39,873 bases of DNA from a virus, in UHGV virus genome UHGV-0062059; one strand, 5' to 3'. The position numbers are program-made. Of this stretch, positions 27,001 through 30,000 are shown piece by piece (positions within the stretch are counted from its first letter, which is position 1; every line of letters begins with the position of its first letter).

Positions 27001-30000
27001 ATCAAGTAATCATTCTCTCCTACCTTAACCAGTCGCAGTGGTGCAATTGCATCACTCATGCGGCTCAGGACATATTCTTCCGAGTTGGTGAATTTGATGC
27101 CTTTTATCAACGAACCGTCACCAAGTAGAGCCCCAATAACCCAACCATCAAGGGGAATATTTTTACCAAAGTCTCCGGTCAAGGATGGCACTCTTATTCT
27201 TCCCTGATAACGTGTTTTTTGTAGCATCCCAGCCAGCGCATCAGTATCAACAACGCGCTTACCAGTAAATCTTGATGATGAAATTTCCCATAAGTGGTTG
27301 TCGGCACATTTCACGCTACGTCCGTCTTCAAAGGTGACTAAATATGTGAATTTCTTCCCTTGCGGGAAGACGCCAATTACCTCCGAAGGAAGCCCGTCTA
27401 TTGACGCGATGCGATCGCCAATTTTGACTTCTCCGTGAGTAGTCCAGGTGCCATCTGCAAGTAAAATCCCTTCGCTTAGCGCCATTGCTTTCCCCATGCC
27501 AGGACGAGCAGCGATTATCACCAGGTCTTCTGCGTTCATCCCTCCGGTGATGGCATCAAGTTCTTCGATTCCGGTCTTCAGGGTATCTGACTCTTCTCCG
27601 TTCCTCAGACGCCTGTCAAGCGTGTCAGTGTAGTCAGTGATGATTTCCCCTAACCGTACCGGTTTAACCTCGTCACGGGGCTTTCTGATGGCTGAGAGAC
27701 GCTTTACAAGCTCATCCATCGCCTGACTCGATGCGTCGATGGTTCCGCTTTGAATTGGTTCACGCATTTCATCCATGATTTCCAGCACCAGACGGCGGTG
27801 ATAGTTATCCGCGACCATTCCGGCATATCCCTTCAGGTTTGCGGCACTCGGGCAGTTTTTGCTGGTCATCAGGATTGACGTGAAATGCTCCTCTCCGCAC
27901 GCCTCGGCAACCATCAGCGCGTCGATTAGGTTTCTGTTTCGCGCCTGCTTGCGGATAACCTCGAAGGCTTTCCGGTAGAGCGGTATTGAAAACGCTTCCG
28001 GCTCAAGCGTTGCCAGAACGTCACTGGCAATTGGTGTTAATCCACCAATCAGCAGGCCACCGATAACGCTCGCTTCGATATCCTGTTTCATGCAATCCCC
28101 CTGTCTGCAAACTTCCCTTCCCGAACTCCCGTTAACGAATCTTCCCTCAGCAGGTAATCAAAATCTGCCGTCCAGCCCGTGTCGTTGTCTCCGAAGTAAA
28201 ACGGCTTGGCCTGATGCACAAACGCCCTGACATACGCTCTGAAACCGTCCACGTTTGGCGTTTTCAGTTGCGGGATGATTTTCTTCAGGCGGCGTTTGCG
28301 TTTCTCGTTGACCGCAACAGCGTGTGGAAGCCTGTCACCGACTTCGGTGTTGTAGGCGTTCAGGAAGGATTCGTAGTCGATTCGTTCTGCCTTGCGACGT
28401 TCAGGTTTAACCTGCCCATCGCCTCCCCCATTGGGGGGTAGGGGGGTATTATTTATATTCTTGTTAATACCTTCTTGTTCATGATGTGCGGTTGTTTGTG
28501 CGGCTTCATGTGCGCTTTCATGTGCGGCATGTACGCTGAAAGCCGCGCCATTACTGGCTTCATCATGTGCGGCATCATGTGCGGTTGTTTGTGCGGCTTC
28601 ATGTGCGGGGGAATTGTCCATTTTTTGAGCGTATTCATGGTAATTTGTGATGGTGATCACACGACCTTTTTGCTTCTCTCCATCAATGGAGATCATCCCC
28701 TCTTTCACAAAAACCTGAAGCATCCGCTCAACCTGATCACGGCTTGCCGGCTTGCCATGCCTGTCGCATAACTGAAGACCTAAATCAGCTGCTGTCACAA
28801 CCAGTTGACCGGGTTGCAGATGCCATTCATGACCTTTGAAATTCGCTTTGTATGGCTTTCTGGCGGCATTCAGGAGAAGGTTTTCCCACAGGGTGCGAAG
28901 ATAAACATCTTTCGCCCATGACTGTTTCAGAATGCTCCGGTACAACGGAATGTAACCAGTTTTCTGGTTCTCCATCCTGTTGCTCCTGCGCTCGTGTGCG
29001 GCGCTGAAATCGTAGATTTTTGCTGTATTGCTCATCACTACCTGCCTTGACGAAAGACCTTAAGAACATCGTTAAACTGACTTACGGATATGTCTTCTTT
29101 GATCAGCTTTTCCAGAAATGCGTTTGGAATGAACGTATATCCCTCCTCTTTTGGTAGAGACGGGAGCAACGCCCTCGCCTCAGCCTTCAGAAGCTCAGTT
29201 CTGGCAACTTTCACAAAAGAGATTTGAGTTCTTTCATCAATGGAACGAAGGAAGCGCAAACGCTTAGCTTCTTTGTGTGTATCAGGTGGATTAAAGCCTT
29301 TGTTTCGCATATAATTACCTCGTTGGATGTTATTAAAATTCCATTTGTATTTGATCAGAACGCTCGGTTGCCGCCGGGCGTTTTTTATTGGTGAGAATCG
29401 AAGCAACTTGTCGTGCCAATCGAGCCATATCGTCGTCAACGACGCCCCATTCAAGAACAGCAAGCAGCATTGAGAACTTTGGAATCCAGTCCCTCTTCCA
29501 CCTGCTGATCTGCGACTTATCAACTCCCACAGCTTCCGCTGTCTTCTCAGTTCCAAGCATTGCGATTTTGTTAAGCAACGCACTCTCGATTCTTAGAGCC
29601 TCGTTGCGTTTGTTTGCACGAACCATATGTAAGTATTTCCTTAACAAATAAGAAGTTATGCGCATCAACTTATGCGCGTTGTATTCCCGCATTTCGGCGG
29701 GAATGAGGACCATGACTGTTAAAGAGCAATTTGCTTATGCCGCTTTGCGGTAAGCGCTTTCTTGATACTTCAGGGCGCCAGCTGTAACGACTTCCAGTCG
29801 ATAGGCGTCTTTCTCTGGGATGACTTCCTTCCACTGAGAGACTGCTGCGTCGCTAATGCCTAACGCTTTAGCTACAGCACGCTGGGTTCCGAAGTGGTCG
29901 ATAACATCTTTCTTGTACATAGACTCGCTCCGAAATTAAAGAACACTTAAATTATCCACTAAAGGAATCTTAAGTCAAGTTTATTTAAGATGTCTTAACT

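Follow-up and report, generated by a model that had tools for sequence, protein, structure and literature searches.

Where does the lambdoid phage represented by UHGV virus genome UHGV-0062059 begin to replicate its DNA? The stretch analyzed here (39,873 nucleotides, referred to below as the window) derives from a CUS-3-like (Lederbergvirus-type) phage or prophage of Escherichia coli, and inside its gene for an O-like replication initiator it carries an array of short direct repeats next to an AT-rich tract. An initial annotation had taken these features for a probable origin lying within the gene, and at the level of sequence and comparison this call holds. The array is very probably the initiator-bound replication origin of this phage, situated in the linker-coding part of the initiator gene. 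Behind this reading stand, among other observations, a constraint on the repeats that acts on nucleotides and not on amino acids, and the joint inheritance of the repeats with the helix-turn-helix and wing portion of the initiator's N-terminal domain (N-domain).

The repeat array

The elements of the proposed origin, in the order in which the initiator gene is transcribed, are the following (aa, amino acids).

28088..29038, minus strand: O-like replication initiator gene, 316 aa counted from GTG
28622..28975, minus strand: N-terminal winged-helix DNA-binding domain, aa 22-139 (AlphaFold2 model, Foldseek)
28562..28609, minus strand: iteron cluster A, four 12-bp units, with plus-strand cores at 28602, 28590, 28578 and 28566
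28529..28561, minus strand: central spacer, 33 bp, of invariant length across the family
28481..28528, minus strand: iteron cluster B, four 12-bp units, with plus-strand cores at 28521, 28509 (variant), 28497 and 28485
28446..28485, no strand: AT-rich tract, putative DNA-unwinding element, with the lowest GC content and the weakest nearest-neighbor stability of the replication region
28425..28446, no strand: inverted repeat CCCCC-ATT-GGGGGG with a second G6 run, at the start of the C-terminal module

Seven exact copies of TGTGCGG are found on the plus strand, at 28485, 28497, 28521, 28566, 28578, 28590 and 28602. The initial annotation had counted eight copies; the eighth, at 28509, has one mismatch (TGTGCGC, which is GCGCACA on the coding strand), while the 12-bp spacing and the two clusters of four are confirmed by core-to-core steps of 12, 12 and 12, then 45, then 12, 12 and 12 bp. 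The duplicated block described at the same time is also real, but its exact length is 31 bp rather than 32 (28484-28514 is identical to 28577-28607, at an offset of 93 bp). Tandem Repeats Finder, which had been suggested as a check, reports period-12 arrays at 28497-28528 and 28561-28608. Chance is excluded, with seven exact 7-mers lying within 130 bp against a maximum of four (reached once), and typically three, in 200 Markov-simulated windows. The rest of the window has three TGTGCGG matches, scattered singles at chance frequency, and no second array of this core was found in it.

The array (28481-28609) starts four codons past the N-domain, where the annotated iterons of lambda O and the annotated rep_origin of P22 gene 18 are also located. 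Read on the coding strand, the unit is four codons, xCC GCA CAt nnn, with the core CCGCACA, and the array encodes the His/Ala-rich linker PAHEAAQTTAHDAAHDE...HAAHESAHEAAQTTAHHE, as had been recognized from the outset. Two overlapping open reading frames (ORFs), at 28475-28771 on the plus strand and 28453-28638 on the minus strand, are artefacts of the repeat array. A further TGTGCGG at 28995, near the 5′ end of the gene, was considered as an autoregulatory site and dropped, because it is a single copy at chance frequency and because a relative whose iterons differ also has the AAH peptide.

Constraint on the repeat units

Because the array is translated, it has to be asked whether selection sees the DNA or the protein. 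Relatives were gathered by means of the N-domain: Klebsiella phage Mulock, Yersinia phage 210.17, Enterobacter phage ENT1, and 47 loci from GTDB species genomes (including Xenorhabdus, Brenneria, Citrobacter, Atlantibacter, Yersinia, Pantoea and Proteus), with N-domains 49-88% identical. Near-identical loci came from IMG/VR, where 80 of 455 matches were kept. The unit statistics rest on 316 units in 46 regular loci from about 44 species of Enterobacterales.

Information along the unit amounts to 0.33, 1.30 and 1.97 bits over the first codon, 1.92, 1.29 and 1.01 over the second, 1.77, 1.64 and 1.49 over the third, and 0.38, 0.70 and 0.10 over the fourth. The best-conserved base of the unit is thus the third base of codon 1, a C in 315 of the 316 units, in a codon whose first position is free and whose residue may be P, A, G, T or S. 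At codon 2, one core type has GCA (138 of its 140 units), and the other has GCG or GAG (172 of 176). As a control, the third positions of 21 conserved four-fold codons in the adjacent N-domain average 0.59 of 2 bits. Synonymous sites are therefore near saturation in the N-domain but fixed in the cores, the reverse of protein-coding constraint. Variation among 76 near-identical loci has the same distribution, with 16% of positions segregating in the cores (nearly all as singletons), 40% between cores and 45% in the central spacer (Fisher p = 0.002).

These data bear directly on a reading in which the repeats were selected as a His/Ala-rich tetrapeptide linker, for example a metal-binding segment or a flexible spacer, and repeat expansion produced the DNA periodicity as a side effect. 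A selected peptide would be compatible with the reading frame of the array, with a unit of exactly four codons, with Ala-His as the most frequent dipeptide, and with expansion and contraction in frame. Such a peptide would not, however, account for a best-conserved base that is synonymous in a codon with a free amino acid, for an Ala codon fixed as GCA or GCG in each lineage, or for His written as CAT in 253 of 254 cases. Relatives with N-domains about 47% identical keep the 12- and 45-bp geometry but encode PDEPCDKPSD or VEGSDEPPVE, and the equivalent repeats of Lactobacillus phage phiAT3 have an 11-bp period. We therefore regard selection for the linker peptide as highly improbable; the constraint on the repeats acts on nucleotides, not amino acids.

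Cluster geometry and copy-number variants

All regular loci share one plan: the N-domain, three or four units, a spacer, three or four units, and then CATCATGAACAAGAAGGTAATAAC... Within clusters the step is 12 bp, and between them (last core of A to first core of B) it is 45 bp; this holds in 46 of 46 regular loci, and both steps are kept in the three relatives whose cores have diverged to CGATRA, G[TA]CGA[AG] and CG[AG]TACA. The clusters are equal in all 46, either 3+3 or 4+4, and 3+4 was never seen, even though the N-domain tree implies at least five switches between the two states. The central spacer has a fixed length of 33 bp and a sequence that varies within the population. A hidden dyad or a 24-bp super-unit was considered and rejected, there being no inverted repeat in the array and 3+3 arrays being in existence.

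The exceptions are informative about how the array changes. E. coli LZYWN_4 (locus L008; NZ_CP046416, 501-1481) has an in-frame allele longer by 93 bp, with 4+5+4 cores, and a Symbiopectobacterium metagenome-assembled genome (locus L053) has a single cluster of three cores in an initiator gene that appears disrupted. The two alleles match both products of an unequal crossover between the 31-bp duplicates 93 bp apart, and copy-number variation of this kind is typical of iteron arrays.

An out-of-phase near-core, TGTACGC, lies in the central spacer at 28530-28536 on the plus strand; counted along the gene, it is 9 bp away from the core that opens cluster B. The coding strand of 16 of 78 near-identical IMG/VR loci has an exact GCGCACA here, so that the near-core would become a ninth, overlapping site.

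The initiator N-domain and core specificity

If the repeats are read as DNA, which protein reads them? The N-domain matches Pfam Phage_rep_O (PF04492) over aa 21-133 with 56.8 bits (cut-off 28.7), compared with 123 for lambda O, 129.5 for P22 gp18 and 114 for HK97 O. The lambda O-like N-terminus noted earlier is accordingly borne out as to family, but the domain belongs to a divergent subfamily that is neither lambda-like nor P22-like. With tblastn it gave no match to lambda, P22 or HK97 (E ≤ 0.01 for P22 and HK97), and a sequence search of the PDB gave none at E ≤ 1. The AlphaFold2 model (predicted local distance difference test, pLDDT, 84.9) is a winged helix with helices at 62-68 and 79-91 and a beta wing at 95-109 in domain numbering, residues 79-91 being the predicted recognition helix. 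Against the PDB, Foldseek returned generic winged-helix proteins only (CAP, RbkR, RosR, CodY and Orc), all of them weak hits with E ≥ 0.02, and neither search supplied a structural template for the mode of binding.

Cores fall into two types, CCGCACA in 22 loci and CCG(C/A)GCA in 24. Among the 40 loci with ungapped N-domains (17 and 23 of the respective types), only two positions of the domain are split perfectly by core type: residue 62 is A with CCGCACA and S or T with CCG(C/A)GCA, and residue 80 is D with the former and H with the latter. These residues, A83 and D101 of the ORF in the window, sit at the starts of both helices of the helix-turn-helix in the AlphaFold2 model. A tree built without columns 62 and 80 requires at least two switches of core type.

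A pair of Yersinia loci documents one such event. The prophage of Yersinia vastinensis (locus L038) has cores of the GCG type and Yersinia phage vB_YenM_210.17 (locus L004) has cores of the ACA type, and the DNA of the two is 100% identical on both flanks. Identity is 100% over the first ~165 nucleotides (nt) of the domain and again from CATCATGAACAAGAAGG onward, and about 70% in between. The divergent stretch, ~330 bp at nt ~2665-3000 of each locus, comprises exactly the helix-turn-helix, the wing and both iteron clusters. The pair is a natural swap, in which the recognition half of the domain and its sites were exchanged as one cassette, and the repeats are co-inherited with that half of the N-domain.

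A reader other than the initiator, either a host protein or the product of the gene at 29038-29313, might still be proposed, as the 91-aa protein encoded immediately upstream is of unknown function (PHROG 2519). The core type, however, co-varies and co-transfers with the initiator's own helix-turn-helix and wing. Moreover, the upstream gene is not the same in relatives with this array: Mulock encodes there a DNA-binding protein of 265 aa, and the Yersinia phage a KilAC antirepressor, which argues against the upstream product as reader. A host factor is made less likely by cores that vary among phages sharing the same hosts. The chance that something other than the initiator binds these repeats appears very slim.

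AT-rich tract and inverted repeat

An AT-rich stretch had been expected, and placed, on the side given by the gene direction, and this is where it lies: 28446-28485 follows the repeats when the initiator gene is read in its direction of transcription, the arrangement also found in lambda. GC content over the 40 bp from 28446 is 0.225 (77.5% A+T), the lowest among the replication genes; 0.6% of all 40-bp windows in the sequence have a GC content as low or lower. Its nearest-neighbor stability of -38.5 kcal/mol, against a mean of -50.0 (standard deviation 3.5) for the window, makes it the weakest duplex in 25698-29400 and places it in the top 0.2% of the window. The tract encodes ..EQEGINKNINN.

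Next to it, 28425-28446 reads CCCCC-ATT-GGGGGG-TA-GGGGGG, or CCCCCC TA CCCCCC AAT GGGGG on the coding strand, and the hairpin is present in a single-strand fold (z = -2.15). This C5/G5 inverted repeat is shared with the origins of P22 and HK97; in P22 the equivalent element falls within the annotated rep_origin.

The position of the tract matters for a further possibility, namely that the initiator binds the repeats chiefly for regulation, by titration, autoregulation or handcuffing between genomes, while the strands are opened and the helicase is loaded at another site in the genome. Iterons of plasmids and of lambda do titrate or handcuff initiators (PMC3349717), and paired clusters of equal size could fit pairing or looping. 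The weakest duplex of the replication region nevertheless abuts the array; iterons, AT-rich tract and inverted repeat follow one another as in the lambda and P22 origins; the AT-rich motif CATCATGAACAAGAAGGTAATAAC.. is kept after cluster B in all relatives (~44 species); and the window has no second array of the core. We consider a purely or mainly regulatory role improbable.

C-terminal domain, helicase and mosaic structure

Two further features complete the replication module.

28088..28468, minus strand: initiator C-terminal domain, aa 191-316, of the P22 gp18 / HK97 O type, presumed to recruit the helicase
25698..28091, minus strand: DnaB-family replicative helicase of the P22 gp12 type, its start overlapping the initiator stop

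The C-terminal domain (C-domain) is 97.6% identical to HK97 O over aa 191-316 and 60.5% identical to P22 gp18 over aa 191-313; its alignment to PHROG 345 covers positions 175-295. As reported before, a DnaB-type helicase follows the initiator directly, with overlapping stop and start, and has Pfam matches to DnaB_C (E 3.6e-71), DnaB (E 1.4e-12) and LAGLIDADG_3. No homologue of lambda P was found between the two genes, the scan having covered the neighboring genes, of which the next one downstream encodes NinB. The description of the arrangement as P22-style is thus apt for the C-domain and the helicase, but does not extend to the half that contains the N-domain and the iterons.

A C-domain of lambda-like type, followed by a protein that matches Pfam Phage_lambda_P (E 1e-52 to 1e-68), accompanies the N-domain and iteron module in 8 of 10 sampled relatives; in the other 2 the partner is of the DnaB type. 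N-domain, iterons and AT-rich tract travel together, and are combined with partners of either the lambda P or the DnaB type. The locus is hence a mosaic, because the N-domain and iteron half is coupled to lambda P in most relatives but to DnaB here.

The element to the right of the AT-rich tract goes with the C-domain and the helicase partner, not with the iterons. In DnaB-type modules (the window, P22, HK97, ENT1, and loci L049 and L053) it is CCCCC..GGGGG, and in lambda P-type modules it is the lambda palindrome GAGAATTC-N5-GAATCCTC. The inverted repeat is located at 28425-28446 in the window, 1526-1547 in locus L002, ~3095-3125 in L003 and ~551-590 in L136. As this element travels with the C-domain, the recombination joint lies inside the AT-rich tract. 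On its left the origin follows initiator specificity, on its right the helicase-delivery system, and the inverted repeat may mark the half that is specific to helicase delivery.

The helicase gene is interrupted by a 339-aa LAGLIDADG homing-endonuclease intein (26472-27488, minus strand), inserted at the Walker-A P-loop (..AARPGMGK / AMALSEG...YIVTHN / TELALKIA). Its first residue is Ala, it ends in HN, Thr stands at +1, and a Cys occurs in ECLCIMV; we take these features to resemble those of class-3 inteins in phage DnaB helicases. CUS-3 has an intein-free helicase of 458 aa (CUS-3 P), to which the exteins are 99-100% identical. DNA of the same intein (at least 99% identity) is present in 51 phage records, all of Stx2 (Shiga toxin 2) phages or TL-2011a. 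It also occurs in 30 of 5426 E. coli genomes; over the matched region of these, RefSeq has one protein for the DnaB N-terminal domain and another for the C-terminal domain.

Comparison with known phage origins

Judged by sequence, the layout is homologous to those of the lambda and P22 origins, with a Phage_rep_O domain, repeats, an AT-rich tract, an inverted repeat and a C-domain. As in lambda, the proposed ori is inside the initiator gene, in the linker-coding stretch between the Phage_rep_O domain and a partner-binding C-domain; the order is iterons, AT-rich tract of ~40 bp, inverted repeat; and the initiator belongs to the early rightward operon downstream of cII, the window also having a lambda-like oop terminator. 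The resemblance to lambda extends, in most relatives sharing this N-domain, to the C-domain, to the P partner and even to the right-hand palindrome GAGAATTC..GAATCCTC.

The iterons themselves are different. The lambda record lists four 18-bp "ori iteron" sites, with the palindrome TCCCTC-N5-GAGGGA and a spacing of 20-24 bp, followed by an AT-rich run and an imperfect palindrome, TCAGAGAATTCTGGCGAATCCTCTGA. The present locus has instead eight 12-bp direct repeats without a dyad, in two equal clusters at a fixed 45-bp step, and in its iterons it therefore departs from the lambda ori type, which has about four dyad iterons of ~18-20 bp at 20-24-bp spacing. Its helicase partner is a phage DnaB, whereas lambda uses P and the host DnaB.

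With P22 and HK97 it shares the type of C-domain, the DnaB-family helicase directly downstream, and the CCCCC..GGGGG to the right of the AT-rich tract. The P22 rep_origin inside gene 18, on the other hand, consists of palindromic TCGGTAAAA..TTTACCGA repeats, an AT-rich run and ACCCCCTTACCCCCTAAAGGGGG; its four dyad iterons of ~20 bp are unrelated to the TGTGCGG cores, and neither the N-domain nor the iterons of the window are of the P22 type. Published descriptions give four iterons of ~20 bp for lambda and four repeats of ~20 bp for P22, and for gene 18 of phage L six imprecise 11-bp repeats, TGTCCAACGGA, proposed as its origin (PMC8022706). In Stx phages, only four of six iterons were strongly bound in vitro (PMC7466680).

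Closer in form are the repeats of Lactobacillus phage phiAT3 (locus L137, 1837-1891), where five GTCAATCAA direct repeats with an 11-bp period stand right after the N-domain. That N-domain, part of a putative replication protein, is 31.5% identical to the present one, the next gene is annotated as DnaC, and a purine/AT-rich run follows the repeats; since the 11-bp period is out of frame, there is no peptide repeat. Further copies of TGACAATCAA lie upstream of the phiAT3 array, within the gene. Phage L and phiAT3 thus resemble the window in having short-period (11-12-bp) direct repeats, taken as iterons, inside an O-like initiator gene, and differ from it in having single arrays, an out-of-frame 11-bp period and other cores. 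The phiAT3 repeats suggest that direct-repeat iterons of short period are widespread in this initiator subfamily. In the literature we found no experimental demonstration that the repeats of phage L or phiAT3 are an origin.

Two systems outside the lambdoid phages are worth mentioning as mechanistic analogies only, with no relationship in sequence or family being claimed. Plasmid Rep monomers bind direct-repeat iterons adjoining an AT-rich unwinding element, plasmid iterons being ~17-22 bp long. The pho boxes of PhoB/OmpR-type proteins have a 7-bp core and a 4-5-bp spacer, that is an 11-12-bp period, and are bound by head-to-tail winged-helix domains. A paper on iterons and replication protein O (PMC6118388) was set aside, as it concerns the iterons of an IncX1 plasmid.

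Salmonella phage S.Inf 5-2 has an N-domain 46.2% identical to the present one, with the same score as that of locus L005 (OR850084.1, "Staphylococcus phage SA 1298 Kay"). L005 is a 2.7-kb "UNVERIFIED_ORG" contig with an enterobacterial-type O-like initiator and an HK97-type C-domain, and is almost certainly mislabelled or a contaminant.

Proposed initiation complex

From the architecture and its conservation we infer binding by the initiator and its stoichiometry, unwinding of the AT-rich tract, recruitment of the helicase through the C-domain, and origin firing. The winged-helix N-domain would read as DNA the eight 12-bp units, which consist of a core of 7-8 bp, CCGCACA(T), and 4-5 free bases apiece. 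One DNA-binding domain would occupy each unit, giving head-to-tail arrays on the two equal clusters 33 bp apart; a head-to-tail arrangement is most likely because the repeats are direct, lack a dyad and recur at just over one helical turn. The nucleoprotein complex, an analogue of the "O-some", would destabilize the adjoining 40-bp AT-rich tract, after which the C-domain, being of the P22/HK97 type, would recruit the DnaB-type helicase of the phage directly, without a loader of the lambda P type.

It may further be imagined that the initiation complex is unlike that of lambda, with head-to-tail domains on the two equal arrays, the arrays paired through dimerization of the initiator, and the 33-bp spacer looped. 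We put this forward tentatively and consider it rather unlikely. Array pairing would, if true, explain the constant 45-bp step, the clusters that are always equal, and the movement of the recognition half and the arrays as one cassette.

Several points weigh against the reading of the array as an initiator-bound origin. No inverted repeat, and so no dyad symmetry, was found within the array, whereas the iterons of lambda and P22 have dyads. The N-domain is a weak and distant member of Phage_rep_O, and the co-variation of core type with domain residues rests on few independent events (two Fitch changes, one of them the recombination). Lambda O and the O proteins of the Stx phages P27 and 933W are dimers (PMC7466680), so the mode of binding is not simply transferable from lambda. 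We found in the literature no binding, footprint, origin-mapping or plasmid-replication result for this type of origin. Finally, the record of CUS-3, the only full-length homologue with annotation that was examined, has no origin feature at this position. Neutral in this respect is the finding that, near the array, there is no exact DnaA box (single-mismatch matches only), no IHF consensus and no enrichment of GATC.

Neighboring genes

The order of genes on the minus strand is cI, cro, cII (lambda-type), the 91-aa ORF, the O-like initiator, the DnaB-family helicase and NinB. The initiator matches PHROG 345, "replication initiation O-like", with E 2e-100. Its start has been chosen in different ways: GTG here, an ATG one codon further in by the annotation of CUS-3, and Met22 by RefSeq. 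The 91-aa ORF (29038-29313, minus strand) lies between cII and the initiator, and its stop overlaps the initiator start. It has no Pfam match and belongs to PHROG 2519 (E 3.5e-57); unrelated genes occupy the corresponding position in relatives. A strong terminator-like hairpin (12-bp stem, T run) at 29357-29384 on the plus strand is antisense to the 3′ end of cII, the position of the lambda oop RNA terminator.

Distribution and significance

CUS-3 O, JEP4, HF4s and many phages of the Stx2a group match the DNA of the initiator gene at 98-99% identity. Similar DNA was found in 121 phage records, and this N-domain in 74, 48 Stx2a-converting phages among them; 713 of 5426 complete E. coli genomes (~13%) have a match. 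Most homologues of the N-domain in the databases are "partial" proteins of ~150-210 aa (P0001-P0072), from contigs that end in the array; many copies are partial because the array breaks short-read assemblies.

In kind, the element is textbook, since lambdoid phages keep their origin inside the initiator gene, and the initial call was therefore correct but not surprising. Apparently undescribed are the 12-bp direct repeats, the bipartite array with its fixed 45-bp step, the equality of the clusters, and the exchange of a half-domain and its sites as a cassette; for this architecture we found no description in the literature, which gave the general paradigm only (PMC8022706, PMC3349717, PMC7466680).

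Such a rigid iteron architecture, neither that of lambda nor that of P22, would offer a second natural model for the assembly of winged-helix O-type initiators on DNA. Residues 62 and 80, together with the natural cassette swap, allow predictions, open to direct test, on how the specificity of the initiator might be re-targeted. That a putative DNA-binding site should dictate the codons of a protein linker also bears on annotation, recoding, synthetic-phage design and studies of Stx-phage replication.

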